Shown here piece after piece: positions 27,848-42,517 of a stretch of 64,000 nucleotides of DNA (within the stretch, counting starts at the first letter, position 1; each line of letters opens with the position of its first letter). The translations under genes and the position numbers were made by a program. The DNA is from an uncultured Chloroflexia bacterium (GTDB lineage Bacteria > Chloroflexota > Limnocylindria > QHBO01). The notes under the pieces were generated by a model that worked only from the letters and a program-made list of their open reading frames with translations, had not been told where the DNA came from and ran no database searches. The DNA is taken from contig CAWEDO010000002.1 of the NCBI GenBank assembly GCA_963807915.1, positions 297,502 to 361,501 of the forward strand. Direction: 5' to 3'.

Positions 27848-28378
27848 ATGCGTCTCGCCACCACCATGGCCGCCGGCGCCCTGCTGCTCGTCGCCTGCAC
27901 CCCGCAGACCGGCGCCGGGAGCGGGGCGCCGAGCACGGAGCCGAGCAGCGCCGCCGCCATCCAGATCACCGTCTCCCACACCGCCGCCGGCGACGCGCTC
28001 GCCGGACCGAACGGCATGACGCTCTACATCCTTGCGAACGACACCAACGGCACGAGCACCTGCAACGAGGGCTGCGCGGCGACGTGGCCGCCGCTGCTGG
28101 GTGACGGCTCGGCCGTCGTCGCGGGTGACGGCGTGGCCGGCACCTTCGGCACCACCATCAGGGATGACGGCACCAAGCAGGTGACCCACAACGGACAGCC
28201 GCTCTACTCCTACGCGAGCGACACGGCCGCCGGCGACTCGACCGGGGATGGAGTCGGGGGCGTGTGGTTCATCGCGCCGGTCGGGGCGGCATCGGCCAGC
28301 CCGCGGGCGAGCAGCGGTGAGCACGAGTCGGAGACGCCGGAGCCCTCGGCGACGCCATACCGAGCGCCCGGCTACTGA
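27848..28378 (+). CDS. secreted lipoprotein with Y-x-aromatic-x-x-D repeats (COG4315-like)
   Basis: Lipobox LLLVACT. Repeated GxTLYxxxxD-like units (GMTLYILAND, GQPLYSYASD). Confidence 0.6.
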   Translation: MRLATTMAAGALLLVACTPQTGAGSGAPSTEPSSAAAIQITVSHTAAGDALAGPNGMTLYILANDTNGTSTCNEGCAATWPPLLGDGSAVVAGDGVAGTFGTTIRDDGTKQVTHNGQPLYSYASDTAAGDSTGDGVGGVWFIAPVGAASASPRASSGEHESETPEPSATPYRAPGY

Positions 28379-28623: not shown

Positions 28624-29541
28624 CTACCCGGCCACCAGCGCGTCGTGGATCACGCGTGCGTCGTACAGCAGCATCCCATCCAGTGTCTCGGCTGCTGATC
28701 CCGGCGGCCCCAGGGAATCGGTGTAGAGCGGCTGGTCAACCACCCGCGCGTCGGTCTCGTCGGCGATTGCCCTGGCCAGCTTCGGATTCACCGCCGACTC
28801 GCTGAAGATCGCCGTCACGGCCTCCCGCCGGATCGTGTCGGCGAGCGCGGCGAGCTGGGCGGGGTTCGGCTCGGCGGAGACGTCGAGGCTCGGAAAGACC
28901 GACCCCACGAAGCGGAGGCCGTACTCGGCCAGGAAGTAGCCGATCGCGTCGTGGTTGGTCACGATGCCGCGCCGCTCGGCGGGGATCTCCGCCATGAGGC
29001 GACGGATCTCGACGTCGGCTGACTCCAGGCGGGCGACATAGGTGGCCGCACGATCGGCAAACTGAGCCGCGAGCTCGGGCCGAGCGGCCGACAGCGCGGC
29101 TTGCACGTTCTCGACCATGCGGCTGGCGTTCGGGGCGGTCAGCCAATAGTGCGGATCGACCCCGCCGGCGTCCTCGGCATCGTCCGGTGCGCGCAGCGCG
29201 ACGCCCTCGCTCATGTCCCGCAGGCGATCCCTGCCGCCAAGGGTGGCCAGCGCCCCCTCCAGCCAGACCTCCAGCCCGGCTCCGCTCTCGAGGATCAGGT
29301 CGCTGCGCTCGATGGCCGCGGCCACGGCCGTGGTGATCTCGAATTCGTGCGCCTCGGCGCCCGGCTTCAGCAGGACGGTGAGCGCGATGTCGTCGCCGCC
29401 CACCTCGCGCGCCGCCTCGCCCACCTGGGTCGTGGTCGCGACAACCCGCAGGCGGCCGTCGCTCGGGGACGGGGTGCCCGCATCGCAGCCGCCGGCCGCG
29501 ACCAGCAGCCCGCAGGCCAGCAGGAGCAGGAGCCGTCTCAC
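28624..29541 (-). CDS. znuA: metal (Zn/Mn) ABC transporter substrate-binding lipoprotein, ZnuA/TroA family
   Basis: TroA-fold sequence with metal-site residues (EAHEFE, DPHYWL, NHDAIGYF). Signal/lipobox LLLLLACGLLVAAGGC. GTG 29539-29541 forms a GTGA overlap with the zur stop, whereas the ATG at 29589 would overlap zur by 52 nt. Confidence 0.8.
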   Translation of the reverse strand: MRRLLLLLACGLLVAAGGCDAGTPSPSDGRLRVVATTTQVGEAAREVGGDDIALTVLLKPGAEAHEFEITTAVAAAIERSDLILESGAGLEVWLEGALATLGGRDRLRDMSEGVALRAPDDAEDAGGVDPHYWLTAPNASRMVENVQAALSAARPELAAQFADRAATYVARLESADVEIRRLMAEIPAERRGIVTNHDAIGYFLAEYGLRFVGSVFPSLDVSAEPNPAQLAALADTIRREAVTAIFSESAVNPKLARAIADETDARVVDQPLYTDSLGPPGSAAETLDGMLLYDARVIHDALVAG

Positions 29542-29993
29542 CCCGCTCGTGCCGCGGTCGTGGCGTCCTCCGCTCGGCAGGTCGCGCAACGGCCGTAGAA
29601 GTCGAGCCGGGCATCGTCGATCTCGAAGCCCATCTCACTGGCGAGCCGCTCGGCGATGGGGGTCACATAGGCCTCGTCGATCTCCTCGACCCGCCCGCAG
29701 CGCGTGCAGGCGATGTGGTGATGGTGGGCCGGCAGGCAGGCGACATAGGCGTAGACGTGGCCATCGAGCTCGAGGCGCCTCGCGACGCCGGCCTCGACCA
29801 GGGTCTCGAGCGTGCGGAAGACCGTGGCCCGCCCGATCCCCGGCTCGCGTCGCCGGAGGCTGCGGAAGAGCTGCTCGGCCGTCAGGCGGCGACCGCTGGC
29901 GGCCAGCGCGTTGGCGACGAGCAGGCGCTGCCGCGTGACACGCTCGCCTGCGGCCGTGAGGCGATCAGCCGCCCCAAGCCGGATTCGATCCAT
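29538..29993 (-). CDS. zur: Fur-family zinc uptake regulator (Zur-like)
   Basis: Fur HTH (RVTRQRLLVANALAASGRRLTAEQL) with metal-site HHHH and CxxC..CxxC motifs. Genetic linkage to znuACB. Confidence 0.8.
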   Translation of the reverse strand: MDRIRLGAADRLTAAGERVTRQRLLVANALAASGRRLTAEQLFRSLRRREPGIGRATVFRTLETLVEAGVARRLELDGHVYAYVACLPAHHHHIACTRCGRVEEIDEAYVTPIAERLASEMGFEIDDARLDFYGRCATCRAEDATTAARAG

Positions 29994-30026
29994 GGCCAGA
30001 GGCTAGCACAGGCGAGACTGAGTATC

Positions 30027-30839
30027 ATGTCCGCCGTGAGCGGCACCGTAAGCGACGCACCGAGCGGCCTGGTCCTGCGTGGCGTCAGCGCCGGCTACGG
30101 TTCCGGCCTGGTGCTCCAGGACGCCAACCTGGCCATCCCCCCCGGCACCCTGGTCGGCGTGATCGGGCCGAATGGCTCGGGCAAGAGCACCCTCCTCAAG
30201 TCGATCCTGGGCCTCGCCCCGGTGATGACCGGCACCGTCCTCCTCGACGGCCGTCCGATCGCCGAGCAGCGGGACCGACTGGCCTACGTGCCGCAGCGTG
30301 AGGCGGTCGACTGGAGCTTCCCGATCAGCGCGGAGCAGGTGGTCATGATGGGTCGCTACCCGCGGGTCGGCTGGCTCCGCCTCCCCGGCGCGAGCGACGC
30401 CGCCGCGGTCCGCGATGCGCTGGAGCGCGTCGCCATGGCCGACCACGCATCCAACCAGATCGGGGCGCTCTCGGGTGGACAGCAGCAGCGCGTCTTCCTG
30501 GCTCGGGCCCTGGTGCAGGAGGCATCGGTCCTGCTGCTGGACGAGCCGATGACCGGCGTCGACCAGACGACCGAGCAGCTGATCGTCGGCCTTCTGCAGG
30601 AGCTGCGAGACAACGGGACCACGATCCTGCATGCGACCCACGACCTCGAGTCCGCGTCGGAGATCTCCGACGAGCTCTGCTTCGTCAACCGTCGCGTCAT
30701 CGCCTACGGCCCACCCCTGGAGACCTTCACCCCGCCGATCCTGCACGCCACCTTCGGCGGGGAGCTGCTGATCGTCCACGAGGGGGAGCACACGCACGTC
30801 CATGGCGGCGGCCATCATCACGGGCCGGATCACGAATGA
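30027..30839 (+). CDS. znuC: metal ABC transporter ATP-binding protein (ZnuC type)
   Basis: Walker A GPNGSGKST, LSGGQQQRVFLARAL signature and Walker B LLLDEP. ATG 30027 is the first start after the shadow N-terminus of ORF 29715. Confidence 0.85.
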   Translation: MSAVSGTVSDAPSGLVLRGVSAGYGSGLVLQDANLAIPPGTLVGVIGPNGSGKSTLLKSILGLAPVMTGTVLLDGRPIAEQRDRLAYVPQREAVDWSFPISAEQVVMMGRYPRVGWLRLPGASDAAAVRDALERVAMADHASNQIGALSGGQQQRVFLARALVQEASVLLLDEPMTGVDQTTEQLIVGLLQELRDNGTTILHATHDLESASEISDELCFVNRRVIAYGPPLETFTPPILHATFGGELLIVHEGEHTHVHGGGHHHGPDHE

Positions 30840-31744
30840 GCTGGCTCACCGATCCGCTGGGTTACGACTTCGTGCTCCGCGCGCTCGCCGAGGTGGTGGT
30901 GATGGGAGCCACCTGCGGGGCGATCGGGGCGTACGTGATCGTGCGGCGCCTGGCCTTCATCGGCGACGCCATCAGCCACGCCGTCTTCCCCGGCATCGTC
31001 CTCGCCTACCTGGCTGGCCTGAGCATCTTTGGCGGTGCGCTCGTGGCGGGCCTCATGACCGCGTTCGGCATCGCGCTGGTCGCCCGTGGCGGCCGGATCC
31101 GGGAGGACGCCGCCATCGGCATCTTCTTCGCCGCCGCCTTCGCCCTGGGGATCGTGCTGATCAGCACGCGCCAGACGTTCCAGGGCGACCTGACCGGCTT
31201 CCTGATCGGCAACCTGCAGGGCGTCTCCGCCGGTGACATCGCGATCAGCGCGGCAGTGGGGCTGGCGATCATCGTCGTGCTCGCCGCGGTCCACAAGGAG
31301 CTGGTGCTCGTCTCGTTCGACCGCACCCTGGCATCGGCCCTGGGGTACCCGGTCTTCGCGCTTGACGCCTTGCTGCTCGTGATCCTGACCGTGACCATCG
31401 TGGTCAGCATCCAGGCGGTCGGCATCATCCTGGTGCTGGCGATGCTCGTCACGCCCGCGGCGACGGCTCGGCTGCTGGTCGACCGCTTCGTGCCGATGCT
31501 GGCGCTGGGCTCAGTCCTTGGCGCCGCGGTCGGGGTGGCCGGCTACTTCATCTCGTTCCACCTGGGGACCGCCTCCGGCGGCACGATCGTGCTGTTGGCG
31601 ACGGCCCTCTTCGTGGTGGCCTTCGTCGCCAGCCCAACACACGGGCTGCTCGGACACCGGCTGCGTCGCCATCCGCAGCACGCCGGCGTCGCTCCGGCTG
31701 TCGATCCCCCGGCCGGACATGAGCACGGTGCTCAGGACGTCTGA
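30836..31744 (+). CDS. znuB: metal ABC transporter permease (ZnuB type)
   Basis: ATGA overlap with znuC. ABC-3 family TM topology. Confidence 0.85.
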   Translation: MSWLTDPLGYDFVLRALAEVVVMGATCGAIGAYVIVRRLAFIGDAISHAVFPGIVLAYLAGLSIFGGALVAGLMTAFGIALVARGGRIREDAAIGIFFAAAFALGIVLISTRQTFQGDLTGFLIGNLQGVSAGDIAISAAVGLAIIVVLAAVHKELVLVSFDRTLASALGYPVFALDALLLVILTVTIVVSIQAVGIILVLAMLVTPAATARLLVDRFVPMLALGSVLGAAVGVAGYFISFHLGTASGGTIVLLATALFVVAFVASPTHGLLGHRLRRHPQHAGVAPAVDPPAGHEHGAQDV

Positions 31745-31854: not shown

Positions 31855-32346
31855 ATGCTGTCACTCCCTGCGACATCCCACGAGCACCACCAGGAGATCG
31901 AGCGGCACCTTGACCGGCTCCCGCAACTCGCCGACATGATCGGTCGTTCGACGCCAGAGGCCTTCTCCAGTGCATTCCAGCAGGAGTGCCGCTTCATCGT
32001 GAGCCAGCTGGTGCCTCACATGGAGGCGATCGAGACGAGCCTGTACGGGCGGCTCGAGCAGATCATGGACGGGCGCCACTCGATGGCCCCAATGCGCCGG
32101 GAACATGAGCAGCTGCGCGGGCTGTTCGCGTCACTCTGCCGGTACCGCGAGCTCGCAGCCGACGAAGGGCTGACAGACGCGGACGAGATCGGCCTGCGGC
32201 GCGTGCTCTTCCGGTTCTACGCGATGATGAAGGTCCACCTGACAGAAGAGGATCTTTACCTCGGCGTGCTGGACCGAAACCTCACCGCCGATGAAAAGGA
32301 TGCGCTCGCCAGGGGCATCGACCATGCCGGTGCGACGCCGCTCTAG
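31855..32346 (+). CDS. hemerythrin HHE cation-binding domain protein
   Basis: His/Glu ligand pattern (HHQEIERHL, HMEAIE, HSMAPMRREHEQL, KVHLTEED). Paralogue of 32877-33371. Confidence 0.7.
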   Translation: MLSLPATSHEHHQEIERHLDRLPQLADMIGRSTPEAFSSAFQQECRFIVSQLVPHMEAIETSLYGRLEQIMDGRHSMAPMRREHEQLRGLFASLCRYRELAADEGLTDADEIGLRRVLFRFYAMMKVHLTEEDLYLGVLDRNLTADEKDALARGIDHAGATPL

Positions 32347-32361: not shown

Positions 32362-32691
32362 TCAGCCTGTGTTCCGGGGCGCGCTGACCGCCTCGAGATA
32401 CCGCGCGTTGAACTCGCCGATGAGCCGGGCTCGCTCCTTCATCACGGCCGCCCACGCGTCGATCGCGGCGTAGCCGGCATCGGTCAGGACGTAGTTGCGA
32501 CGTTGTGGTCCGACCGGTTCCGCCGACCACGACGAGGTGACCTGGCCGGCCGCTTCGAGGTCGCGCAGGGTCCGATAGACCTGACCGATGTCCACCGAGC
32601 CTTCGGTGATGCCCATCTCCTCGAGCTGGGCGGTGATGGCGTAGCCGTGCGCACCCCCGGCCGCGAGGAGGACGAGCACGAACGGCTCCAT
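32362..32691 (-). CDS. PadR-family transcriptional regulator
   Basis: MEPFVLVLLAAGGAHGYAITAQLEEMGITEGSVDIGQVYRTLRDLEAAGQV is a PadR winged helix. ATG 32691 is preferred over ORF start 32865. Confidence 0.75.
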   Translation of the reverse strand: MEPFVLVLLAAGGAHGYAITAQLEEMGITEGSVDIGQVYRTLRDLEAAGQVTSSWSAEPVGPQRRNYVLTDAGYAAIDAWAAVMKERARLIGEFNARYLEAVSAPRNTG

Positions 32692-32876
32692 CCATCGGTG
32701 ACGCCCACCCAGAGGCGCCCAGCCGCGATGGACGGGAATGCCCGCCGCATCGTGATCCGATGCGACGGCGTCCATGTCCGCCACGGCCGGAGTCCCACGG
32801 CCCTCGTTTGGAGCACCCATCTGCCTTGAGAGCATAGGCGCTTCAGACATGCAGATCGGGATCAAGCCGATGCGAG

Positions 32877-33371
32877 TCAGAGCGCCGTGATGCCGCTGTG
32901 GTCCATCGCCGCGGCGAGCTTCTCCGCGCTCTCGGGCGAGGCACCACGTTCGATGATCCTGAGATAGAGCTGCTCCTCCGCGAGGTGGACCTTGAGGATG
33001 CTGTAGAGGCGGAAGATGACGCGGCGCAGTGCGACCGTCTCGTTCGTCTGCAGGGGTCCCACCTCGAGCCGGTGCTGCAACCGGACGAGCTCCGCCACAA
33101 GCAGGCGGATCTCATCGTGCTCGCGGCGCATCGGCGTCATCGAATGGCGGTTCTGGAGCATGCGCTCCAGCTCGGCATACAGGGTCTTCTCGGCCGTCTC
33201 CATGTGCGGAAGGAGCAGGCCTTCGAGAAAGGCGGCCACCTCTGCCAGGTGCGGCCGGAGCTCGGCAACGGGGGCGGAACCGACCAGGTCACCCACCGCA
33301 GGCATCGAGTCCAGGTGGTGGGTCAGCCGTTCGTGGTGTTCCAGGGAAACGTGGGTCAGGCTCGCGGTCAT
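32877..33371 (-). CDS. hemerythrin HHE cation-binding domain protein
   Basis: 164 aa from MTASLTH (ATG verified 33369-33371). Shares the His/Glu ligand pattern with 31855-32346. The upstream 170 codons of the ORF are shadow. Confidence 0.7.
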   Translation of the reverse strand: MTASLTHVSLEHHERLTHHLDSMPAVGDLVGSAPVAELRPHLAEVAAFLEGLLLPHMETAEKTLYAELERMLQNRHSMTPMRREHDEIRLLVAELVRLQHRLEVGPLQTNETVALRRVIFRLYSILKVHLAEEQLYLRIIERGASPESAEKLAAAMDHSGITAL

Positions 33372-33415
33372 TTCAGACCTCCTTGTGAGTCGATGGTGGT
33401 GTGGACGTCGTCCTC

Positions 33416-34609
33416 TCAGCCATTCGCGCCCCCTTCCGTGACCCCGTCGTTCGGGGTGCCCGCCAGCGCCAGGAAGAACAGGGCGACCGGCCGGTAGACC
33501 GCGTGGGCGAGTTTCATGAACGGGGCCAGGATCACGAGCTCCATGGCGATCGCCACGTGGAACAGGAACACCCAGTAGCCCCAGGCCGGAACACCCGGGA
33601 GGTAGAGAGCCAGCTCCAGGCCGAAGCCGGTCACGCCGGTGATCCAGACGAGCGCCAGGAGGGTCCAGTCCGCGCTGGTCGAGTGGCGCACGGAGCGTTC
33701 GATGCCCCGATAGCGCTGCAGGATGAGCATCGTTGCGCCGTACACCAGCAGGATCCCCGCCGCCGTGCCGAGCAGGCGGACGGGATACCAGATCGGGACC
33801 GGCGTACCGGTTGCCTTGATCCCCACGAGCGCGAGTCCGTAGTCGAGGATCGTCGCCGCGAGCAGGCCCAGGAAGCCCCACATCGTGGCCGCGTGGATGA
33901 ACCAGCGGCGAAGGAACCAGGGTTGCTGGATCGCGTCCGCATCGCAGTCCTCGCGATAGCGGCGCTGGCCAAGCGTCTCAACCGCGACTGCGCTCCAGAG
34001 CGCGCGAATCGTGCGGAACAATGCGCTGCGGCCGCCAAGGGTGGAACGCAGCGTCACGCCCCCGGCGCGGCCGACGGCCCTGGCCATGGTGACGACGCCG
34101 ATGAGACCGGCGGCGAAGACGATGACCATGATCCCGATCCCCGCGTTATGGATCAGCTCCTCGGGGATGAAGCCGAAGATGTCGAGCGAGGCCGCACTCT
34201 GCGCGCCGTGGCCCGCATACATGAAGAGGGCGAAGAGCGCCGCCAGGGCGACCGCGATCACGGTCCCGATCACGGGTCGGGTGTACATCGTTCGAGCCAG
34301 CCCGGTCCGGTCGTAGTTGGCGATCGCGTAGCGCCGCGCGGCCGCCATGAACTCGCTCGGCTCCGCCTGGGTCGGGCATGACTCGGAGCACTCCCCGCAG
34401 GCATAGCAGGTCCACAGCTCCTTGCTCGACAGGAGCTGGTCGCGCAGGCCCACCTGTGCGAGGCGGATCAACCGCCGGGGGAAGGTGGCGTCGTCGCTGA
34501 CCAGGGGGCAGGTCGCCGTGCAGGTCCCGCAGCTGAAGCAGGCCGACACGTCCGCCGCGCCGTAGCGCTTGATGTCGGCGAGCAGGCCGAGCTGTACGGT
34601 GGCGGTCAT
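33416..34609 (-). CDS. QmoC-like membrane subunit: HdrC-type di-[4Fe-4S] domain fused to an HdrE/NarI-type heme-b membrane domain
   Basis: Two CxxCxxCxxxCP motifs (CFSCGTCTATCP, CYACGECSESCP), then five or six TM helices with conserved His (HAATMWGF, FHVAIAM, KLAHAVYRP) typical of di-heme b NarI/HdrE/DsrM. Confidence 0.75.
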   Translation of the reverse strand: MTATVQLGLLADIKRYGAADVSACFSCGTCTATCPLVSDDATFPRRLIRLAQVGLRDQLLSSKELWTCYACGECSESCPTQAEPSEFMAAARRYAIANYDRTGLARTMYTRPVIGTVIAVALAALFALFMYAGHGAQSAASLDIFGFIPEELIHNAGIGIMVIVFAAGLIGVVTMARAVGRAGGVTLRSTLGGRSALFRTIRALWSAVAVETLGQRRYREDCDADAIQQPWFLRRWFIHAATMWGFLGLLAATILDYGLALVGIKATGTPVPIWYPVRLLGTAAGILLVYGATMLILQRYRGIERSVRHSTSADWTLLALVWITGVTGFGLELALYLPGVPAWGYWVFLFHVAIAMELVILAPFMKLAHAVYRPVALFFLALAGTPNDGVTEGGANG

Positions 34610-34866
34610 GAGGGCTCCTTCGCAGTCTGCCTGACGATCGCTTCGTAGCGGAAGTAGCCATCGTCGGTGGCGCCCTTGACCTCCTGGACGTGCCCGTAGC
34701 GGCGCATGCCCATCACCCAGAAGACGACCTCGTGGGTGGGCACGGCGAGCTCCGCGGCGATCTCCGGGATGGTCCGCGCTCCTCCGTGCAGGAAGGCCAG
34801 GATCTGGGCGCGCATGACCGGCTCCTCACGGACGATCTCGCGCAGGGCTCGATTCGGGGCATTCAT
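34606..34866 (-). CDS. small winged-helix-like protein (86 aa), function unknown
   Basis: ATGA-coupled between the hdrA-like and qmoC-like genes. MNAPNRALREIVREEPVMRAQILAFLHGGARTIPEIAAELAVPTHEVVFWV suggests a wHTH. Start ATG verified at 34864-34866. Confidence 0.55.
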   Translation of the reverse strand: MNAPNRALREIVREEPVMRAQILAFLHGGARTIPEIAAELAVPTHEVVFWVMGMRRYGHVQEVKGATDDGYFRYEAIVRQTAKEPS

Positions 34867-36605
34867 GCGATCGGCACCTCCAGGAGGCTGTCGATCATGG
34901 AGGTGACCTGGGCGTTGGTGTAGCCGAGCAGGTCGATGGCGCCCTCCGGGCAGACGGGGACGCAGCCACCGCAGCTCTTGCATCCGGTTGCGCTGATGGT
35001 CGCCACCGCCTTGCCATCCACGGTCGCCATCTCGATGGCGGCATAGGGACAGGCGGTGATGCACAGCTCGCAGCCCGTGCAGGTGTCGGTGTCCACGATC
35101 GCCACCAGCGGGTCGAGCTCGGCGAAGCCCTTCTTGAGGATCACCGCGCTCTGCGTGACGGCGGCAAGGCCCGACGCAACGCTCTCGCTCGAGTTCCTGG
35201 GACCCTGGCAGGCGCCGGCGATGTACACCCCGTCGACCATGGTCTCGACCGGGCGCAGCTTGGGATGGATCTCGTTGAAGAAGCCGTCCTTCCCCAGGGG
35301 GAGCTTGAGGAGGCCATTCAGCTCCTCGTTCCTGCGCGGGATCATCCCGGTGACCAGCACCACGAGGTCTGCCGGGATGGCGATCTCCTCCGTTCCGGTC
35401 AGGAGGTCGCGCACGGTGACCACCAGGCGGCCAGAGCCATCCTGGGCGACGGCCGGTGGTGCATCGTCGGCGAACTTGAGGTAGACCGATCCGAGCTCGC
35501 GCGAGGTGGTGTACATCGGCTCGAACTTGCCGTAGGTGCGCATGTCCCGGTAGAGGTGGTACTGGTGCACTTGCGCGTCCCGGGAGGAGACCTGGATCGA
35601 GGCGGCGACGGTCGCCGCGCAGCAGTAGCGCGAGCAGTACTGGTTGCCGTCGGGCTTGTCCGCGGGCTCGCGGCTGCCGACGCAGTAGACGTACACGACG
35701 CTCTCGACCGGCTTGCCGTGGAACTCCAGGCGGCCTGCCGAACGGTCGATCATCTGCTTGAACTCCGGCAGGGTCACCACCCCGTCGATCCCGTAGCCGT
35801 ACTCGCCCACCTCCGGCTGGTAGGCATCGAAGCCGGTGGCGACGATGATCGAGCCAACCTCGACGGTGAGCGTCTCGCCGCCCGGTCCGCCCAGGCGGAT
35901 GCCGGCGGTGTAGTTGCCGAAGCTGCCGGACTTGCTGATCAGCTCGGCTCCGGTGAAGACGTTGATCGCGGGGCGCTGCTCGATGCCCTCGATCAGCTCC
36001 GCGATGAGCGCTCGGCCATTCTTGCCGGTCGGGTACATCTCCTCGAACCCGCCGACCCAGCCGCCGAGCGTGGTCTCGCGCTCGACCAGGAAGACGCCGA
36101 GGCCGATGTCGGCCAGCCCGATGGCCGCGCGCAGCCCTGCGACGCCGCCGCCCACCACCAGCGTCTTCTGCGTCGTCTCGACGACGATCGGCTCCAGTGG
36201 TTCGGTCAGGCGGGTGCGGGCGATGCCGGCCTTGACCAGGCCGATGACCTTGTTGGTGGTGGCCTGCAGGTCATCCGATTGGACCCACGAGGCCTGCTCG
36301 CGCACGTTGACCTGGGTGTATTCGTACGGGTTGAGGCCGGCCCGATTGGCCACCGCCCGGAATGTGACGACGTGGAGCTTCGGCGAGCAGGACGCGACCA
36401 CCATGCCGTCGAGCTGCTGCTGCTCGATGTCGCGCTCCATCTCCCCCTGGCCCGAATCCGAGCAGGCGAACATCATCTGCCGGGCCACCACCACGCCCGG
36501 CTCAGCCTCGGCCGCGGCGACGACCTGGTCGATGTCGACGTGGTCGGAGATGTTGCCGCCGCAGTGGCAGACGTAGACCCCGATCCGGCGCTCGGTCTCG
36601 CTCAT
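34863..36605 (-). CDS. hdrA: heterodisulfide reductase subunit A (HdrA)-like FAD/FeS flavoprotein
   Basis: N-terminal IGVYVCHCGGNIS cluster motif, FAD-binding VVGGGVAGLRAA, Cys-rich inserted domain (CSRYCC) and C-terminal 2x[4Fe-4S] (CTGCELCITACP, CKSCGGCVPVCP). ATG 36605 is ATGA-coupled to the upstream gene, and the remaining 380 codons of ORF 34863-37751 are shadow. Confidence 0.8.
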   Translation of the reverse strand: MSETERRIGVYVCHCGGNISDHVDIDQVVAAAEAEPGVVVARQMMFACSDSGQGEMERDIEQQQLDGMVVASCSPKLHVVTFRAVANRAGLNPYEYTQVNVREQASWVQSDDLQATTNKVIGLVKAGIARTRLTEPLEPIVVETTQKTLVVGGGVAGLRAAIGLADIGLGVFLVERETTLGGWVGGFEEMYPTGKNGRALIAELIEGIEQRPAINVFTGAELISKSGSFGNYTAGIRLGGPGGETLTVEVGSIIVATGFDAYQPEVGEYGYGIDGVVTLPEFKQMIDRSAGRLEFHGKPVESVVYVYCVGSREPADKPDGNQYCSRYCCAATVAASIQVSSRDAQVHQYHLYRDMRTYGKFEPMYTTSRELGSVYLKFADDAPPAVAQDGSGRLVVTVRDLLTGTEEIAIPADLVVLVTGMIPRRNEELNGLLKLPLGKDGFFNEIHPKLRPVETMVDGVYIAGACQGPRNSSESVASGLAAVTQSAVILKKGFAELDPLVAIVDTDTCTGCELCITACPYAAIEMATVDGKAVATISATGCKSCGGCVPVCPEGAIDLLGYTNAQVTSMIDSLLEVPIA

Positions 36606-39310
36606 GCCAGGGCCTTCGCGCGCTCGAGGTAGGCGGCAACCTGGGCGACCGTCGAGCCGGCATGCAGGATCGAATCGGCGATGTCCTTGGCGCCCGATGC
36701 GGCACCGGCGACGTACACGCCGTCGATGCTCGTCTGGCCCGGGTTGGCGTCCTCGTCGGTCTCGGCGACATACGAGTACTCGTCCGTCGAGAGGGCCCCC
36801 ATCGGGAAGAGGGCCTGGGCGTCGCTGTTGGGCTGAACGCCCACCGCGAGCACGACGAGGTCGTACTCCGCTTCGACGATCTGACCGCCGTGCTCGATGT
36901 CCTCGTAGCGCAGGACCAGGTCGCCGTTGTCCTTCTCGGTGATCTTGGCCACGCGTCCCTTGACGTAGTTGGCGCCCATCGCCTTGGCCTGCTCGTAGAA
37001 CTCGTCGTAGCGCTTCCCGGGGGCACGGATGTCCATGTAGTGGACCGTCACGTCGGCCACCGGGAGGGCACCCATGATCAGCTGGTTCTGCTTGATCGAG
37101 TACATGCAGCAGAACCGCGAGCAGAGCGGGTTTCCGACGGTTTCGTCGCGCGATCCGGTGCAGAGGACGTAGGCGATGCGATCGGGCACCTTGCCGTCCC
37201 CCGGCCGCAGGATGGTGTTGAACGGCCGCGTCGGGGCCAGCAGGCGGTCCATCTGCATGCCGGTGATCACGTTCTTGAAGGTGCCGTAGCCGTATTCCGG
37301 CTTCAGGTCGGCGGCGAACAGCTTGAAGCCGGTCGCGACCACGACCGCGCCGACCTCGACATCGAGAACCTCGTCGCGAGCCCGCAGGTCGATGCACTGG
37401 TCCACGGGACAGGCGTCGACGCACTCGCCGCATTCGGAGCAGACGCCGCAGTCCAGGCACAGGCCGGCGCCGCGGTGGGCCTCCTCCTCTGTCATCGGCA
37501 GCTCGACCTCGCGGAAGTCGGTCGGGGCATCGCTCAGCACCTCGCTCGGACCTTCGGCCAGCGCCATGCGGTACGCCTTCTGGCGAGCGAGGACCTCTGT
37601 CTTGTCGACGACCGGGAGCCGCAGGTCGAAGCCATCGAGCTCCAGGCCATTGATCCAGCGATCGATCATGTGGGCTGCGCGCTGGCCCTGCCCCGTTGCC
37701 CGGGTGATGTCCGAGGCGCCCGAGACGACGTCGCCCGCGGCGAAGAGCCACGGCACGGCGCTCTGCAGCGTGCCCGGATCGACAGCGGCTCTTCCGCCGG
37801 CATCGGCCGTGACCTGGGCGCCAAAACCCTCGGTATCGGGCGCCATTCCGATCGCCGCGATGACGACATCGCCGGCGATCTCGAAGTCAAGGCCCGGGAT
37901 CGGCTCTGGCCGGCCGCGGCCGGTCGGCCCCGCGACGGATGGAGCCATGCGGGTGCAGCGAAGGGCGCGAGCCGCCCCGTTGCCGTCATCGAGGACTTCC
38001 GCTGGCGCCGCCTCGAAGACGAAGTGGACGCCTTCCGTCTCGGTGTCATCGGCCTCGACGTGGTGGGCCGGCATCTCGGCGCGGCTGCGCCGATAGACCA
38101 CGGTGACGTCGCGCGCACCCAGCCGGCGGGCGGTCCGTGCGGTGTCCATCGCGACGTTGCCGCCGCCGATGACCAGGACCCTCTTGCCCGCCAGGTCGAC
38201 GGGCTCGCCGAGCTTCACCCCACGCAGGAAGTCGACACCGCTGAGCACGCCATCGAGCTGGTCGCCGGGGATGCCGAGCTTCGTGGAGAGCGGCGTGCCG
38301 GTCGCCAGGAGGACGGCTTCGTAGCCCTCGGCGTGGAGCGCCTCGAGATCCGTCACCGGCGCGCTGGTGGCGATCTCGACGCCGAGCGCAGTGACGTTGG
38401 CGATGTCCTGCTCGACGACCTTCGCGGGCAGGCGATATCCGGGGATGGCCAGCCGCAGGAAGCCGCCGGCCTTCGGCGCGGCCTCGAAGATCTTGACCGC
38501 ATAGCCGCGGCGGGCCAGCTGCCAGGCCGCGGTCAGGCCGGTCGGTCCGGACCCGATGATGGCCACGCGGTGACCGTTCGGCTCCGGGATCGCGACTCCG
38601 GGGCCATCGAACTTCTCGTAGTGGATGTCGGCGATGAATCGCTTGAGGCGGCGGATCGGGATCGGTCCTTCGAGGGATCCTCGGGTGCAGTCGACCTCGC
38701 ACGGCGCGTAGCAGGCGCGACCCAGGGTGCCGACCAGCGGCGTCGCGTCGAGCACCAGCTGGAACGCCTTCTCGTACTCGCCACTGCGGATGAGCGAAAC
38801 GTAGCCGTGGGCCTGGATGCCGGCCGGACAGGCGTAGGAGCAGGGCGAGGACCCGGCTCGGTCGATGACCGCCTTCTTGGGCACCGCCTGGGGGAACGCG
38901 ATGTAGGCGGCTCGGCGCTGGACCATGTCGGCGTTGAACTGGTCGGGAACGGCCACGGTGCAGGCCGTCTCGCACAGCTGGCAGCCGGTGCAGGTCAGCT
39001 CGTTGACGAACCGCGCCTTGCGCGTGACCTTTGCCCGGAAGTGCCCATCGGCACCACGCTTGATCCCGTCGACCTCGCTGTAGGTCATGGTGGTGACGTT
39101 GGGGTGGTGGATCGACGCAGCCATCTTGGGGGTCGAGATGCAGCTGGCGCAGTCGAGGGTGGGGAACACCTTGCTGAGCAGGATCATCTTCCCGCCCACG
39201 CTGGCCTCCTTCTCGACCAGCAGCACCTTGTAGCCCATGTCGCCGAGCTTCAGCGCGGACTCCATCCCGCCGATGCCCGCGCCGACGACCATGACGTCGT
39301 AGTCGGTCAC
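36602..39310 (-). CDS. HdrA-like flavoprotein with inserted GltD/NfnB-type NAD(P)H-binding domain (HdrL-like)
   Basis: HdrA N-terminus (MTDYDVMVVGAGIGGMESALKLG..DCASC), ferredoxin motif (CTGCQLCETAC), GltD-type segment (CSYACPAG..VAIIGSGPTGLTAAWQLARRGYAVKIFE..RVLVIGGGNVAMDTARTARRLGA), second ferredoxin (CLDCGVCSECGECVDACP) and HdrA C-terminal FAD half (NPLCSRFCC..DGVYVAGAASG). Confidence 0.75.
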   Translation of the reverse strand: MTDYDVMVVGAGIGGMESALKLGDMGYKVLLVEKEASVGGKMILLSKVFPTLDCASCISTPKMAASIHHPNVTTMTYSEVDGIKRGADGHFRAKVTRKARFVNELTCTGCQLCETACTVAVPDQFNADMVQRRAAYIAFPQAVPKKAVIDRAGSSPCSYACPAGIQAHGYVSLIRSGEYEKAFQLVLDATPLVGTLGRACYAPCEVDCTRGSLEGPIPIRRLKRFIADIHYEKFDGPGVAIPEPNGHRVAIIGSGPTGLTAAWQLARRGYAVKIFEAAPKAGGFLRLAIPGYRLPAKVVEQDIANVTALGVEIATSAPVTDLEALHAEGYEAVLLATGTPLSTKLGIPGDQLDGVLSGVDFLRGVKLGEPVDLAGKRVLVIGGGNVAMDTARTARRLGARDVTVVYRRSRAEMPAHHVEADDTETEGVHFVFEAAPAEVLDDGNGAARALRCTRMAPSVAGPTGRGRPEPIPGLDFEIAGDVVIAAIGMAPDTEGFGAQVTADAGGRAAVDPGTLQSAVPWLFAAGDVVSGASDITRATGQGQRAAHMIDRWINGLELDGFDLRLPVVDKTEVLARQKAYRMALAEGPSEVLSDAPTDFREVELPMTEEEAHRGAGLCLDCGVCSECGECVDACPVDQCIDLRARDEVLDVEVGAVVVATGFKLFAADLKPEYGYGTFKNVITGMQMDRLLAPTRPFNTILRPGDGKVPDRIAYVLCTGSRDETVGNPLCSRFCCMYSIKQNQLIMGALPVADVTVHYMDIRAPGKRYDEFYEQAKAMGANYVKGRVAKITEKDNGDLVLRYEDIEHGGQIVEAEYDLVVLAVGVQPNSDAQALFPMGALSTDEYSYVAETDEDANPGQTSIDGVYVAGAASGAKDIADSILHAGSTVAQVAAYLERAKALA

Positions 39311-39753
39311 GAGGTCACCGCCGACGGTCCGAGTGCGATGAGCGCCTGGCCGAACTGTTGCACGTGTCGCGTGAACGGCTCGGCGCAGACGGAGCAGATG
39401 GCGGCCATCTTCAGCCGCTGGGGGTCGAGCCCTGCCTGTGTCAGGAGCGCCTGGGCCTGGCCCACGATCTTCGACGCCCGCGTCGAGCAGTCAGACAGGT
39501 AGGCGCACTCGTCGCCGTCCGAAGCGATGAAGACGCCGTCGAATCCGTGCTCGATGGCGTGGAAGATCCAGCTCGGCCGGATTCCGCTGGTGCAGGGCAT
39601 GCTGATGACCACGACACCAGGCGAGTAGCTCATGTGCGAGCTGCCCGCCAGGTCGATCCCGGGGTCCGAGATGTTGTTGGTGGAGAAGACGAGGATCCGC
39701 GGAACGAATGCGCGTTCCGCGCCCTGACGCTCCGCCGGGGCGATCGTGGTCAT
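39307..39753 (-). CDS. MvhD/FlpD-like [2Fe-2S] hydrogenase delta-subunit-type electron-transfer protein
   Basis: ILVFSTNNISDPGIDLAG..VVISMPCTSGIRPSWIFHAIEHGFDGVFIASDGDECAYLSDC..AAICSVCAEP matches PF02662. Has a 4-nt overlap with the HdrL-like gene. Confidence 0.75.
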   Translation of the reverse strand: MTTIAPAERQGAERAFVPRILVFSTNNISDPGIDLAGSSHMSYSPGVVVISMPCTSGIRPSWIFHAIEHGFDGVFIASDGDECAYLSDCSTRASKIVGQAQALLTQAGLDPQRLKMAAICSVCAEPFTRHVQQFGQALIALGPSAVTS

Positions 39754-39766
39754 CAGGCTGTGGCGG

Positions 39767-40042
39767 CTACTTCTGGCGCGTCACGAAGGTGCGCTCGTAG
39801 CCCTCGCCCGGCAGGAAGCCAAGGAAGGTATGGCCGACCTTCGTCGACCAGGCCTCGATGTCGCCCTTGGTGGCGGGGTCGCTGGACCAGATCTCGATGA
39901 CCTGGCCGACCTGGACCGTGCCCATGGCCTTCTTGGCCTCGAGGAGCGGTCCGGGGCATGCGCTGCCGCGCGCGTCGACGACCTTGGCCGTCTCGAGCGC
40001 CGAGAGGTCGGTGTCGCTGAGTGGGGTGGTGATGGTCATCAT
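39767..40042 (-). CDS. tusA: TusA-family sulfurtransferase
   Basis: CPGP motif in DARGSACPGPLLEAKKAM. The ORF starts at 40078, but the ATG at 40042 (MMTITT) gives a typical TusA length. Confidence 0.7.
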   Translation of the reverse strand: MMTITTPLSDTDLSALETAKVVDARGSACPGPLLEAKKAMGTVQVGQVIEIWSSDPATKGDIEAWSTKVGHTFLGFLPGEGYERTFVTRQK

Positions 40043-40108
40043 CGGGGTGTCTCCTTGGTGTGTGCCTGGCCCTGGCAAGCGCCCGGCCAGCCTGTACGGC
40101 GTTGGGGC

Positions 40109-40474
40109 TCAGTAGACGAGGGTGTTCGTGGCCGAAGTCACCTCCGCGACGAAGCGAGCCGCCGCCACGATCTCGGCGCCGGGAATGAGCGAGTCCGCGA
40201 TGCCACGGCTCTTCACGCAGGGCCCGCAGGCCAGCAGGGTGCCGCCGAGCTCGCGGAAGTCATCGAGCAGCTTCGTCAGCGGGGGGAACTCGCGCGCCTG
40301 GACCGTCTCTGCCTCCCCCTGGTGAACCAGGCAGACGCCGTCGGCCTGGAGTCCGATGACGACAGCGACGTCCGACGCCAGGGCGGCGCAGGCCATGACG
40401 AACGGGATGGTCGCTCGCTCCGGGTCTTCTGGTCCGTGGGTCGCCATGATCACGAGCCTCTGCTGCTCGGCCAT
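40109..40474 (-). CDS. DsrE/DsrF-family sulfur-relay protein
   Basis: 121 aa, LVIMATHGPEDPERATIPFVMA..LLACGPCVKSRGI with a conserved Cys, matching the DsrE-like (COG1553/2210) fold. Confidence 0.65.
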   Translation of the reverse strand: MAEQQRLVIMATHGPEDPERATIPFVMACAALASDVAVVIGLQADGVCLVHQGEAETVQAREFPPLTKLLDDFRELGGTLLACGPCVKSRGIADSLIPGAEIVAAARFVAEVTSATNTLVY

Positions 40475-40504
40475 TTCGGGCTCCTTCCGATATCCAGTGC
40501 GCGT

Positions 40505-40912
40505 TCAGATGAAGAGGATCTGGCCGTCGTCCGCGGCCGCGAGGAAGGCGGCGATGCCGCCGGCGTCGTCGACGATTGGATCAAGGTGCTCGGCGTTCAG
40601 GCCGAGGGTGCTGAGCGATCCTGAGCAGGCGCGAATGGTCACCTCGCCGAGCTCCTTCGCCGTTCGCAGGGTCTCGAGCCACTGGGTCTCCCCAACGTGG
40701 CCGACCGGCTCGTTGAACCTGGGGCGTGCCGCGTCATAGGCGAGGCCGTGATCATTTGTGATGCGGTCGGCGCGGAAGGCGTCCAGGGCCCAGTACATCA
40801 GCAGGATGCTGACCGGCGTGCCCATGGCAGCCGCACCGGAAGCGATCGTCGCCGCCGCATGGAGCTTGTCGTCGGTCCCCGAGAAGAGGACGATTGAGAG
40901 TCCGTTGCTCAC
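40505..40912 (-). CDS. DsrE/DsrF-like (COG2210) sulfur-relay protein
   Basis: Paralogue of 22725-23138 (LFSGTDDKLHAA..IRACSGSLS..GQILFI). GTG 40910-40912 forms a GTGA overlap with the upstream arsR-family stop, and the ORF extends to 40993. Confidence 0.65.
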   Translation of the reverse strand: MSNGLSIVLFSGTDDKLHAAATIASGAAAMGTPVSILLMYWALDAFRADRITNDHGLAYDAARPRFNEPVGHVGETQWLETLRTAKELGEVTIRACSGSLSTLGLNAEHLDPIVDDAGGIAAFLAAADDGQILFI

Positions 40913-41283
40913 CGATGACCTTCCTGACTGGAGACGAGCGGGAGGGGTGCAGGGTCGTGAAATGCGGCCGCCAGTTCGCCCAACCTCGACCATCGGCGAA
41001 CGAGGACTTCACGCATGAGAGCGCACGCGGCCAGGATCTGCGGGTCGCTGAGCTGATAGCTCACCGTTCTGCCGTCGCGGACTGCATCGACAAGGCCGAC
41101 CGCCCGCATGGCTCCGAGATGCTGGGAGGCAGCCGCCTGGGTAAGCCCCAGGGCACGTGCCACCTCATTGACCTCGCGCGGTCGCTCGCCCAGGAGATGG
41201 AGGATCCGCAGGCGATGCGCGCTGGCCAACGACCGGAGCAGCGACGTTTCGAGCTCGTCGATATCGAGAGTGGCGTCTGGCAT
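40909..41283 (-). CDS. ArsR/SmtB-family transcriptional regulator
   Basis: HTH LASAHRLRILHLLGERPREVNEVARALGLTQAAASQHLGAMRAVGLV with a single Cys (ILAACALM). Paralogue of 23145-23495. Preceded by an AT-rich inverted repeat. Confidence 0.85.
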   Translation of the reverse strand: MPDATLDIDELETSLLRSLASAHRLRILHLLGERPREVNEVARALGLTQAAASQHLGAMRAVGLVDAVRDGRTVSYQLSDPQILAACALMREVLVRRWSRLGELAAAFHDPAPLPLVSSQEGHR

Positions 41284-41295
41284 ATCTGCTCCTCG

Positions 41296-41345
41296 CCTGG
41301 TCTATTCGTTCTAGGCGAATATATGCTTAAAGCGTATATAGGCCT
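41296..41345. promoter_or_regulatory. AT-rich imperfect inverted repeat (ATATATGC-TTAAA-GCGTATAT) in the divergent arsR/DUF2892 intergenic region; candidate ArsR operator
   Basis: Local GC drops sharply relative to the ~70% background. The 8-5-8 dyad sits 20-40 nt upstream of the arsR-family start. Confidence 0.4.
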
Positions 41346-41463
41346 TGGGCCATTAGTAATCAGAACGAGGGCCGACCGGACCCCTGGGTATCCATCCCGG
41401 CCCGGCTCTCGTCCCTATGAGTAGGAACGGGCACCAGCCCGTCGACACCACGAGGACATTCAG

Positions 41464-41676
41464 ATGAATCTCGCCACCAATGAATCGCCGACCGACCGGG
41501 TCATCAGAATCGCGCTAGGAATTAGCCTTGCCGGCGTCGCTCTCGCTGGCGTGGCGACTGCCCCCGTGCTCTACGTCGTCTGGGTCATCGCCGCGATCGC
41601 GCTCGTCACGGGTATCGTTGGCTTCTGCCCGCTGTACGCGCTGATCCGCGTCAGCACAAAGCGAGCCAGCCACTGA
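41464..41676 (+). CDS. DUF2892-type small membrane protein (YgaP C-terminal-like, GFCPLY motif)
   Basis: Two TM helices plus the conserved IVGFCPLYALIRVST motif typical of DUF2892, a family often linked to rhodanese/sulfur loci. Confidence 0.6.
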   Translation: MNLATNESPTDRVIRIALGISLAGVALAGVATAPVLYVVWVIAAIALVTGIVGFCPLYALIRVSTKRASH

Positions 41677-41788: not shown

Positions 41789-42517
41789 TTGGTGCGGCTG
41801 GCGACGCGGCTCGTCCGGGACCCAGACCAGGCCGAGGATTGTGCGCAGGAGACGATCGTGGGCGCCTGGCGTCGCCGGGATCAGCTTCGAGATCCCGCGG
41901 CGCTCTCGGCCTGGCTGCGGCGCAGCATCGTCAACCGGATCATCGATCGGTCGCGTGTCCATCACGACGAGCTCGACATCGAAGCCATCGAGGTGGACTG
42001 GCGCGACGATCGCTACTCGGTGGCTCCCGACCGAGTGCTGGAGCGGGTCGAGCTTCGGGACGAGCTGGAGGACGCGCTTGCGCGCCTGCCGGTCATCTAC
42101 CGGGTGCCGGTCGTCCTCCACGACGTCGTGGGATGGACGGCAGCGGAGATCGGCCGTGCGATGGAGGCCGGGTTGCCGGCCACTAAACAGCGTCTCCGCA
42201 GGGGCCGGATGATGCTCGTCAGTGCGCTCGCGGGGGACGACGAACGCCGCCAGGCAAGCCTCGCCCAGCCGCTCCGTTGCTGGCGAGCACGTCGGCATGT
42301 CTCGGCGTTCCTAGATGCCGAACTCGATCAGAGCACCCGCTCCGCGGTCCAGGCTCACCTCGCAACCTGCCCAACGTGCCCGCCGTTGTATGCCGGTCTT
42401 GTCGGCGTGAAGGCAAGCCTGGGCGGTCTGCGTGATCCCGATTCGGTCGTCGAGGATGCGATCGCCGGGCGGATCCGGGGGCAGCTCGATGGTCAGCGTG
42501 GCCGGTCCAGGTCGTGA
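41789..42517 (+). CDS. ECF sigma-70 factor fused in frame to a zf-HC2 (ZAS) anti-sigma domain
   Basis: Sigma region 2 (ETIVGAWRRRDQL, SAWLRRSIVNRIIDRSR), region 4 (YRVPVVLHDVVGWTAAEIGRAMEAGLPATKQRLRRGRMML), then HLATCPTCP HxxxCxxC zinc-binding anti-sigma N-domain with no intervening stop. The called start is TTG 41789. Conserved region 2.1 residues (DEFADALVGELPRL) are encoded in frame upstream without a canonical start codon. Confidence 0.65.
   Translation: MVRLATRLVRDPDQAEDCAQETIVGAWRRRDQLRDPAALSAWLRRSIVNRIIDRSRVHHDELDIEAIEVDWRDDRYSVAPDRVLERVELRDELEDALARLPVIYRVPVVLHDVVGWTAAEIGRAMEAGLPATKQRLRRGRMMLVSALAGDDERRQASLAQPLRCWRARRHVSAFLDAELDQSTRSAVQAHLATCPTCPPLYAGLVGVKASLGGLRDPDSVVEDAIAGRIRGQLDGQRGRSRS

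Follow-up and report, generated by a model that had tools for sequence, protein, structure and literature searches.

Introduction

Type II Qmo complexes are built around QmoA and QmoB proteins that resemble HdrA, occur with or without Apr and Dsr proteins and are described as being of open function; Ammonifex degensii and 'Ca. Vulcanisaeta moutnovskia' are given there as examples (Neukirchen et al., 2023; PMC10504309). Pairs of HdrL and MvhD, in which a fusion of HdrA with the small subunit of glutamate synthase is encoded next to mvhD, are known from Desulfobacterium autotrophicum and Syntrophobacter fumaroxidans (PMC2702500, PMC5947623), and HdrL has been proposed as the point of entry for NAD(P)H in conjunction with MvhD (PMC2702500). 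A link between dsrE, tusA and Hdr-like genes has been described for sHdr loci (PMC11094781), among them a cluster in Thermomicrobium (PMC6776052). The stretch of DNA analysed here, 64,000 nucleotides (nt) of contig CAWEDO010000002.1 (positions 297,502 to 361,501; assembly GCA_963807915.1) from an uncultured bacterium of the Limnocylindria (Chloroflexota) and referred to below as the window, carries an operon of eleven minus-strand genes in which building blocks of these systems are combined: two HdrA-type flavoproteins, one of them an HdrL, together with MvhD, a QmoC-like membrane anchor and the sulfur carriers TusA and DsrE.

It is proposed that this operon encodes a membrane complex which responds to sulfide or sulfane sulfur and links NAD(P)H, menaquinone and sulfur bound to TusA and DsrE. 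The proposal rests on comparison of sequences and gene contexts, and its chances are judged to be about even. Little is known of the energy metabolism of the Limnocylindria (Ellin6529/RIF-CHLX), an abundant and uncultured group of soils, aquifers and lakes. That they conserve an evidently functional complex with five or more redox subunits and sulfur carriers suggests that they process sulfide or sulfane sulfur outside the SQR/PDO, Sox, Dsr and sHdr schemes, and the core module offers a candidate partner for type II Qmo complexes. The exchange of ferredoxin for NAD(P)H, together with a hemerythrin, suggests how an anaerobic Hdr-type machine might adapt to oxic life.

Gene layout and conservation

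The eleven co-directional genes occupy positions 32362–41283 and are ordered, from 5' to 3', arsR, a DrsE_2-type dsrE, dsrE, tusA, mvhD, hdrL, hdrA, p86, qmoC, a hemerythrin gene and padR (Table 1). The codon-position GC pattern in this DNA of 68% GC is that of real genes. Overlaps of 4 nt were found at five of the ten junctions (arsR/dsrE, mvhD/hdrL, hdrL/hdrA, hdrA/p86 and p86/qmoC), and the remaining gaps measured 13–66 nt. Every domain call was confirmed with Pfam and NCBIfam profiles, p86 being without a family match. A preliminary description of the window had listed the same minus-strand operon, gene order and open reading frames (ORFs) and had assigned HdrA, HdrL, MvhD, QmoC, DsrE and TusA domains to them; the profile searches bore out both the layout and the assignments.

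Table 1. Features of the operon and its surroundings. Positions are those of the window; the last column gives the number of related loci, out of 82, in which the core genes keep the same order. TM, transmembrane; FAD, flavin adenine dinucleotide.
Feature	Position	Strand	Description	Same order (of 82)
YgaP-like TM / DUF2892 gene	41464–41676	+	Divergent, 70 residues, GFCPLY motif; PF11127 59.5 bits	
Putative operator/promoter upstream of arsR	41304–41340	-	AT-rich imperfect palindrome TATATACGCTTTAAGCATATAT at 41319–41340, plus ATTCG-N7-CGAAT at 41304–41320	
arsR	40909–41283	-	ArsR/SmtB regulator, operon gene 1; PF01022 (HTH_5) 45 bits, NF033788 71.6 bits	
DrsE_2-type dsrE	40505–40912	-	PF13686; GTG start overlaps the arsR stop by 4 nt	
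dsrE	40109–40474	-	PF02635, DsrE-like; invariant C83-G-P-C86	
tusA	39767–40042	-	PF01206 64 bits; invariant active-site Cys29 in CPGP motif	81
mvhD	39307–39753	-	MvhD/FlpD-type [2Fe-2S] electron-transfer subunit, separate gene of 148 residues; PF02662 99 bits	82
hdrL	36602–39310	-	HdrA thioredoxin-reductase-like core with GltD/NfnB-type NAD(P)H-FAD-2x[4Fe-4S] module, about residues 165–618	82
hdrA (long)	34863–36605	-	N-terminal [4Fe-4S] domain, FAD domain with HdrA signature cluster, C-terminal 2x[4Fe-4S] ferredoxin domain	82
p86	34606–34866	-	Cys-free winged-helix protein of 86 residues between hdrA and qmoC	77
qmoC	33416–34609	-	HdrC-like 2x[4Fe-4S] domain and about six TM helices; PF13183, PF02665	77
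hemerythrin	32877–33371	-	Di-iron protein; PF01814	
padR	32362–32820	-	PadR regulator, last operon gene; PF03551 57 bits; start uncertain (32775–32865)	
Second sulfur cluster	20463–23495	-	arsR, DrsE_2, tusA, DsrE2-like, tusA, type III SQR-like flavoprotein; 17 kb from the operon	

Conservation was judged from 82 related loci, consisting of the best 80 genome matches of HdrL plus the loci L001 and L002. Gene families of the flanks were obtained by clustering all ORFs from 81 of these loci, one near-duplicate locus being omitted, and residue conservation was assessed on 59–82 orthologues per protein. Relatives of HdrL formed more than 120 clusters at an identity of at least 74%. The best 80 matches came nearly all from metagenome-assembled genomes (MAGs) labelled Limnocylindria or Chloroflexota, from soil, peat, aquifers and lakes. 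The order tusA-mvhD-hdrL-hdrA-p86-qmoC was kept in 77–82 of the 82 loci, with protein identities of 50–95%, and most of the operon genes that are missing fall at contig ends; gene order maintained over so many loci places the linkage far beyond chance. The genes outside this core were found somewhat less often, arsR in 67 loci, each dsrE in 60–61, padR in 61 and the hemerythrin gene 3' of qmoC in 62, in 13 of which it overlaps qmoC by 4 nt. The synteny thus recurs, and the link of TusA and DsrE to the redox module that had been read from the single locus holds across its relatives, tusA adjoining mvhD in 81 of them. All Fe–S cysteines, the four histidines of QmoC and the cysteines of TusA and DsrE were invariant.

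The preliminary description had also remarked on the lack of HdrB, AprAB and DsrAB. Among the annotated ORFs of the 64 kb window none with an HdrB/CCG, AprAB, DsrAB or LbpA domain was found, and no apr, dsr, hdrB or lbpA family recurred in the flanks of the 82 loci; aprAB and sat were absent within 10 kb in these loci and from the distant gene contexts described below. Clustering of the flanking ORFs revealed no further recurring partner family beyond the operon, and among the 82 loci no Etf or HdrB/C pair families recurred. Genes for TauE, rhodanese and OsmC-like proteins lie near the operon in subsets of the loci only. Four loci (L053, L044, L059 and L079) carry an operon of the Limnocylindria type under the labels Steroidobacteraceae or Anaerolineaceae; these labels are probably artefacts of binning or labelling and not signs of transfer.

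Redox subunits

Residues 6–151 of HdrL align with residues 146–290 of HdrA from M. wolfeii (5ODC_A) and residues 622–893 with 291–563, and residues 155–630 align with NfnB/GltD-like modules (9BOV, 8OH5 and 4YLF). The GltD module sits between residues 290 and 291 of 5ODC_A, inside the 'inserted ferredoxin' domain, which in methanogen HdrA was reportedly identified by Wagner et al. in 2017 as the exit towards ferredoxin. The signature CxGSRDx8CSxxCC of HdrL (C717, C730, C734 and C735) and all of its ferredoxin cysteines are invariant. A VYRRS motif points to NADPH as the probable nucleotide. The long HdrA aligned with 5ODC_A in two stretches at 398 bits, the better of which placed residues 244–573 onto 315–648; the inserted ferredoxin domain, which we take to be residues 237–314 of 5ODC, was skipped. 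This protein matched HdrA2 of NCBIfam at 479 bits, its motif CxGSR(D/E)xnCSxxCC is invariant (C308, C324, C328 and C329) and its full-length identity with the long HdrA of the distant modules is about 40%. For both HdrL and the long HdrA the best matches in NCBIfam and the PDB were methanogen HdrA or HdrA2. The sHdrA-type structure 6TJR, that of an HdrA homologue not known to bifurcate, gave 126–137 bits with the two window proteins, compared with 336–398 bits for 5ODC. As judged from these alignments, the domains of one methanogen HdrA are here shared out over two paralogues, as they are in QmoA and QmoB.

MvhD has five invariant cysteines. Its gene stands on its own in the distant modules as in all 82 loci, where it is placed upstream of hdrL. 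Both of the peculiarities recorded in the preliminary description, an NAD(P)H-binding GltD domain within one HdrA and an MvhD encoded on its own, were upheld, the former by the alignments and the latter by the match to PF02662.

QmoC could be aligned with the model NF038018 over its full length at 203 bits, which is under the cutoff of 300 bits. Its N-terminal residues 12–97 aligned with HdrC of 8RVV and 5ODC. The conserved ligands comprise eight cysteines and four histidines in the transmembrane helices (H154, H239, H351 and H369), which would bind two hemes b.

Searches of Pfam, NCBIfam and the PDB at sequence and profile level returned no match for p86. The AlphaFold2 model predicts a winged helix–turn–helix (wHTH) fold with confidence (predicted local distance difference test score of 87), and Foldseek matched it to generic ArsR, MarR and Zalpha folds with E values of about 2e-3. 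A relation of p86 to DsrD, likewise a small winged-helix protein encoded in sulfur operons, is conceivable as a lead; DsrD was absent from the search results. Overlaps of 4 nt or 1 nt were kept across the loci at hdrA/p86 (71 of 77), p86/qmoC (51 of 75) and hdrL/hdrA (50 of 81). Such conserved overlaps of stop and start codons argue for co-translation and suggest that p86 takes part in stoichiometric amounts, probably as a subunit of the complex or as an assembly factor and not as a free regulator.

Comparison with described systems

The closest likeness is to type II Qmo. Both flavoproteins of the window resemble methanogen HdrA more than they do canonical QmoA and QmoB and are accompanied by an anchor of the QmoC type, which scores below the threshold of the canonical qmoC model, as does the QmoC of the distant module L083. 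The core appears to fit this class, the assignment being by description only. The GltD insert, the separate MvhD, the small wHTH gene and the fixed TusA and DsrE have no counterpart in the accessible part of the published description (PMC10504309).

The mapping of the parts onto canonical QmoABC, as found with AprAB in sulfate reducers and green sulfur bacteria, was proposed in the preliminary description and stands: the short HdrA or HdrL corresponds to QmoA, the long HdrA plus MvhD to QmoB, and QmoC to HdrC plus HdrE with its two hemes b. The QmoC of the window has the domain make-up of the canonical (type I) protein, but it does not reach the NF038018 cutoff, a fusion of QmoB with MvhD is missing and a link to apr genes was not seen locally. 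The window further differs from the canonical system in having no partner of the adenosine 5'-phosphosulfate (APS) reductase type and in the addition of the NAD(P)H module, the wHTH protein and the hemerythrin.

With HdrABC–MvhAGD of methanogens (5ODC) the window proteins share the FAD domain with its signature cluster, the N-terminal, inserted and C-terminal ferredoxin domains, MvhD and the di-cluster domain of HdrC. They differ from it in that HdrB, with its catalytic non-cubane clusters, and the hydrogenase are lacking, the HdrA domains are spread over two paralogues, the HdrC-like domain is fused to a heme-b anchor and the ferredoxin port carries the GltD module. The HdrL of the window has the features by which HdrL–MvhD systems are recognized, an HdrA core with a GltD-type module and an adjacent mvhD. 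Those systems are soluble, occur in strict anaerobes, often as selenoproteins, and have links to dsrABC, fdh or hdrABC; in the window HdrL and MvhD are instead partnered by a second HdrA, QmoC and TusA/DsrE, in apparently aerobic Chloroflexota.

The sHdr–LbpA systems (Hyphomicrobium and the type II system of Thermomicrobium) resemble the window in that dsrE and tusA adjoin Hdr-like genes and a small hypothetical gene follows hdrA. The active-site cysteines of the adjacent carriers are present (C29 of TusA, C83 and C86 of DsrE, and C96 of the DrsE_2 protein). An ArsR-type regulator, sHdrR, belongs to sHdr loci, and the window operon is also headed by an ArsR gene. In contrast to the sHdr systems, the window has no HdrB1/B2, HdrC1/C2, LbpA or Etf, its HdrAs are multi-cluster proteins of the methanogen type and it adds a membrane anchor and an NAD(P)H module. 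EtfABCX, which bifurcates electrons from NADH to ferredoxin and menaquinone (PMC10734219), and FixABCX may be functional analogues with respect to their pyridine-nucleotide, quinone and low-potential ports, although the protein families are unrelated.

A search of the accessible literature found no description of a tusA-mvhD-hdrA-hdrA-qmoC-dsrE cluster; an earlier mention in Appel et al. 2021 (BBA 1862:148379) is possible. What appears to be new is the combination of genes and its link to sulfur carriers, and to this extent the 'undescribed' complex of the preliminary description stands. The building blocks are known, type II Qmo and HdrL–MvhD having been published, and for them the term was too strong.

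Modules without the NAD(P)H insert

A HMMER scan with QmoC (E <= 1e-30) yielded a family of 186 clusters at the 50% identity level, and the gene contexts of eight relatives with about 34–47% identity to the window QmoC were viewed. Six bacterial contigs (L083–L086, L089 and L090), including a Planctomycetes MAG and a contig on which the module lies beside DsrMKJOP/Tmc-like genes, carry dsrE and tusA together with mvhD, a short HdrA (about 450 residues), a long HdrA (635–686 residues), a small unannotated gene (93–108 residues) and qmoC. Either an ArsR gene precedes these modules or a gene for a sigma-54/PAS activator flanks them. On a seventh contig, which breaks off at the module, dsrE follows qmoC. 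Pairwise comparison of four of the six (L083–L086) found every part to be orthologous: HdrL equals the short HdrA plus an insert (HdrL residues 2–164 and 619–899 match), and a homologue of p86 with 93–108 residues and 30–43% identity occupies the same position. At that position L088–L090 have an unannotated gene for 96–105 residues. The QmoC of L083 reached 230 bits against the NF038018 cutoff of 300 bits. HdrB (PF02754) is absent from the distant bacterial modules, and hemerythrin from the distant modules altogether.

Since the module recurs without the insert in distant lineages, the tusA-dsrE-mvhD-two hdrA-small wHTH-qmoC core is, on this comparison, an old and widespread Qmo-like module, from which that of the Limnocylindria is derived by gain of the NAD(P)H module, hemerythrin and PadR; the hemerythrin is a lineage-specific addition. 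The preliminary description had regarded the combination as unusual in a high-GC, aerobe-like genome. It is not peculiar to a single genome but characteristic of Limnocylindria-type Chloroflexota, and its core without the insert is found far beyond them.

The eighth context is archaeal. In a Kariarchaeaceae MAG (L088; Asgard, GCA_054388035.1), the genes found at positions 774–8477 are those of the small protein, QmoC, two HdrAs and MvhD, arranged otherwise than in the window, with genes for HdrB (CCG), HdrC and an HdrA-like protein divergent upstream.

On two of the bacterial contigs dsrE is followed by a gene for a Cys-rich protein of 234–240 residues (L083 11008–11712 and L085 10874–11596), which has no family match and a mutual identity of 55%. 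It is absent from the window and the other loci and could be an extra, lineage-specific component.

Sulfur carriers and the regulatory head

TusA is the best conserved component, with 55–63% identity to TusA of the distant modules. Cys96 of the DrsE_2 protein is invariant, and the overlap of its gene with arsR is kept in 44 of 53 loci. The CxPC motif of the PF02635 DsrE is also present in its orthologues in two of the distant modules (L083 and L085); the closest PDB entry to this protein is 3MC3, a DsrE/DsrF-like protein.

The second sulfur cluster of the window was recognized by its matches to the models SQR_III (348 bits) and DsrE2 (85 bits). It begins with two genes paralogous to those that head the operon, the ArsR proteins being 48% identical and the operon DrsE_2 protein 52% identical to the one encoded at 22725–23138. 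This duplicated arsR-dsrE head ties the operon to the metabolism of sulfide and sulfane sulfur.

The ArsR of the operon has one conserved cysteine only, Cys87, which is present in 100% of 66 orthologues, and scored 34.6 bits with the BigR model NF040642, the cutoff of which is 155 bits. Upstream of arsR lies an AT-rich element whose half-site [AG]CATA[TC]A was found 5' of arsR in 54 of 66 related loci, compared with 1% of background windows of 200 nt. Its conservation indicates that the unit begins at arsR, and the element is a putative operator/promoter. A second motif, matching ATTC-N9-GAAT, is present in the element of the window and in only 8 of 67 loci. Repressors of the SqrR/BigR type recognize an ATTC-N8-GAAT box, which the ATTCG-N7-CGAAT of the window resembles. 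Scanning of this GC-rich DNA for consensus sigma-70 promoters and terminators gave nothing informative, and no Rfam family was matched.

Proposed function and alternatives

The following picture is offered for the Limnocylindria operon; in it we infer that a complex forms, which paths the electrons take, what the sulfur substrate and the inducing signal are, in which direction the reaction runs and that electrons are bifurcated. HdrL, the long HdrA, MvhD, the small wHTH protein and QmoC would form a membrane-bound flavo-iron–sulfur complex of the Qmo type (type II, HdrA-like), in which, by homology with HdrABC–MvhAGD, HdrL and the long HdrA would make up an asymmetric heterodimer. The HdrC-like domain of QmoC would replace HdrC and would pass electrons through the two hemes b to or from menaquinone, at the place where HdrB would sit (the high-potential branch). 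The inserted-ferredoxin branch, which serves ferredoxin in methanogens, would be wired to the fused FAD module of the GltD/NfnB type and would exchange hydride with NAD(P)H, and a third port would be provided by MvhD together with the C-terminal ferredoxin domain.

TusA and DsrE are the only conserved candidates for the third redox partner, and conversion between carrier-bound persulfide and sulfide is therefore proposed. TusA/DsrE would present this partner, sulfane sulfur, in the form of a persulfide (or thiosulfonate), the two-electron couple of which lies between those of NAD(P)H and menaquinone. The quinone pool and NAD(P)(H) could then be tied to a reversible conversion of persulfide and sulfide, perhaps through flavin-based bifurcation or confurcation, for which the argument is homology to bifurcating HdrA. 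Such a mechanism, and its action on sulfane sulfur bound to TusA and DsrE, had been put forward in the preliminary description and are plausible on grounds of homology and gene linkage. Transcription would start upstream of arsR, and its repression would probably be lifted by sulfide or reactive sulfur species together with that of the SQR cluster. Hemerythrin and the use of NAD(P)H in place of ferredoxin could be adaptations to an oxic lifestyle.

A bolder form of the proposal, to which a low probability is attached, is that the operon represents a new class of HdrA-based bifurcating complexes in which sulfide or a protein persulfide on TusA/DsrE is the mid-potential two-electron donor and electrons are split between menaquinone (at QmoC) and NAD(P)+ (at the GltD module, or ferredoxin where the insert is missing). 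If this were true, NAD(P)H or reduced ferredoxin would be obtained straight from reduced sulfur with no need of reverse electron flow; running in the opposite direction, the complex would respire sulfane sulfur by confurcation. Such a system would be widespread in the abundant Limnocylindria of soil and fresh water and in several anaerobic phyla, and it would constitute a new class of donor for flavin-based bifurcation.

Several observations weigh against a sulfur-linked function. No site for sulfur chemistry could be recognized in any subunit, be it a CCG domain as in HdrB or DsrK, siroheme, molybdopterin or a cysteine pair of the SQR type. TusA and DsrE are without a redox cofactor, so that no route of electrons to or from the bound sulfur is evident. 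In the archaeal relative TusA and DsrE are not in view, so the link to sulfur carriers is not universal. Partners may also be encoded elsewhere in the genome, the view taken here being that of the window and of the flanks of the loci. Finally, the persulfide-sensing ArsR repressors of the SqrR/BigR/sHdrR type have two conserved cysteines that form an intramolecular di- or tetrasulfide; with its single conserved cysteine the ArsR of the operon was rejected as a sensor of this kind.

The chief rival holds that the complex is a sulfur-independent NAD(P)H:menaquinone (and ferredoxin) oxidoreductase, an HdrA-based analogue of FixABCX/EtfABCX, in which electrons from NAD(P)H entering at the GltD module are bifurcated to menaquinone through QmoC and to ferredoxin through MvhD or the C-terminal ferredoxin domain, and TusA and DsrE would play an accessory part, such as regulation or the supply of Fe–S clusters or thio-cofactors. 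All three ports needed for this are present, no sulfur-catalytic subunit was found, and the archaeal module does without the two carriers in view. The 2-oxoacid:ferredoxin oxidoreductase of the window shows that this apparently aerobic lineage uses ferredoxin, and EtfABCX provides a precedent (PMC10734219). Against this stand the position of TusA next to mvhD, which extends from the 81 loci to six distant bacterial lineages, its rank as the best conserved component and the paralogy of the operon head with that of the SQR cluster. Moreover, relatives without the GltD insert have no port for NAD(P)H, so that a sulfur-independent NAD(P)H reaction cannot be ancestral. A sulfur-independent enzyme is accordingly regarded as rather unlikely.

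Less probable again is an NAD(P)H- and quinol-dependent reductase of persulfide or polysulfide that serves detoxification only, without energy coupling or bifurcation. This overlaps with the sulfur-linked complex favoured here and differs from it on the matter of coupling only. The ArsR-type regulator, the operon head shared with the SQR cluster and the CxPC motif of DsrE, which could form a disulfide, are in keeping with it, as is the reduction of polysulfide in vitro by GltD/NfnB-type proteins such as Pyrococcus SudA. However, about a dozen clusters, two hemes and three flavins make an elaborate apparatus for detoxification, and anchoring to the quinone pool suggests a respiratory link; the reductase is thought improbable.

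It is also conceivable that the operon belongs to an sHdr system whose HdrB/HdrC and LbpA are encoded elsewhere, with TusA and DsrE feeding sulfane sulfur into oxidation to sulfite and electrons passing to menaquinone and NAD(P)+. The linkage of dsrE and tusA with Hdr genes is a hallmark of sHdr (PMC11094781, PMC6776052), and TauE-type sulfite exporters occur near some of the modules. Yet no family of CCG proteins, LbpA or lipoate ligase recurs in the 82 loci or in the distant bacterial contexts, both HdrAs have the extra clusters of the full methanogen type and score far lower with the single-cluster sHdrA (126–137 bits for 6TJR) than with 5ODC (336–398 bits), and the small protein has no NCBIfam or Pfam match; an sHdr system is very improbable. 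Finally, it is held barely credible that the operon provides a canonical QmoABC for dissimilatory sulfate reduction or sulfite oxidation, with its APS reductase encoded at another place in the genome: the logic of the window subunits is that of QmoA/B/C, NF038018 aligns end to end and some relatives are annotated as QmoC by the Joint Genome Institute (JGI), but QmoC stays at 203 of the required 300 bits, the flavoproteins are closest to methanogen HdrA, MvhD is separate, an NAD(P)H module and a wHTH protein are added, and aprAB and sat were seen neither within 10 kb in the 82 loci nor in the distant contexts.

Neighbouring genes

The preliminary description had placed a divergent DUF2892 gene upstream of the operon. 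Its position is confirmed, but as a conserved member of the unit it was rejected: it lies within 9 kb of hdrL in 12 of the 82 loci and is adjacent to the operon only in the closest relatives. Just past it, at 41789–42517 (+), is an ORF with extracytoplasmic function sigma regions 2 and 4 and a zf-HC2 anti-sigma motif, which may be two genes or have a mis-set start.

At the other end, a second hemerythrin is encoded at 31855–32346 (+), convergent with padR; the arrangement of hemerythrin, PadR and an opposed hemerythrin is also found in L001 and L002. Immediately downstream of the operon, 28624–31744 encodes a Zn/Mn-type uptake system of the ATP-binding cassette family (a ZnuA-like binding protein, an ATPase and an ABC-3 permease).

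The 2-oxoacid:ferredoxin oxidoreductase is encoded by two genes at 23641–28023 (-), directly upstream of the SQR cluster, one for a POR_N/PFOR_II/POR fusion and the other for a thiamine pyrophosphate-binding subunit with a ferredoxin domain. On the far side of that cluster, between the SQR-like gene and an ORF for a P-type ATPase, a tRNA-Leu(CAG) was called by ARAGORN at 20360–20448 (+); the call is doubtful, as no Rfam tRNA reached the gathering score, and it overlaps the N-terminus of the ATPase.

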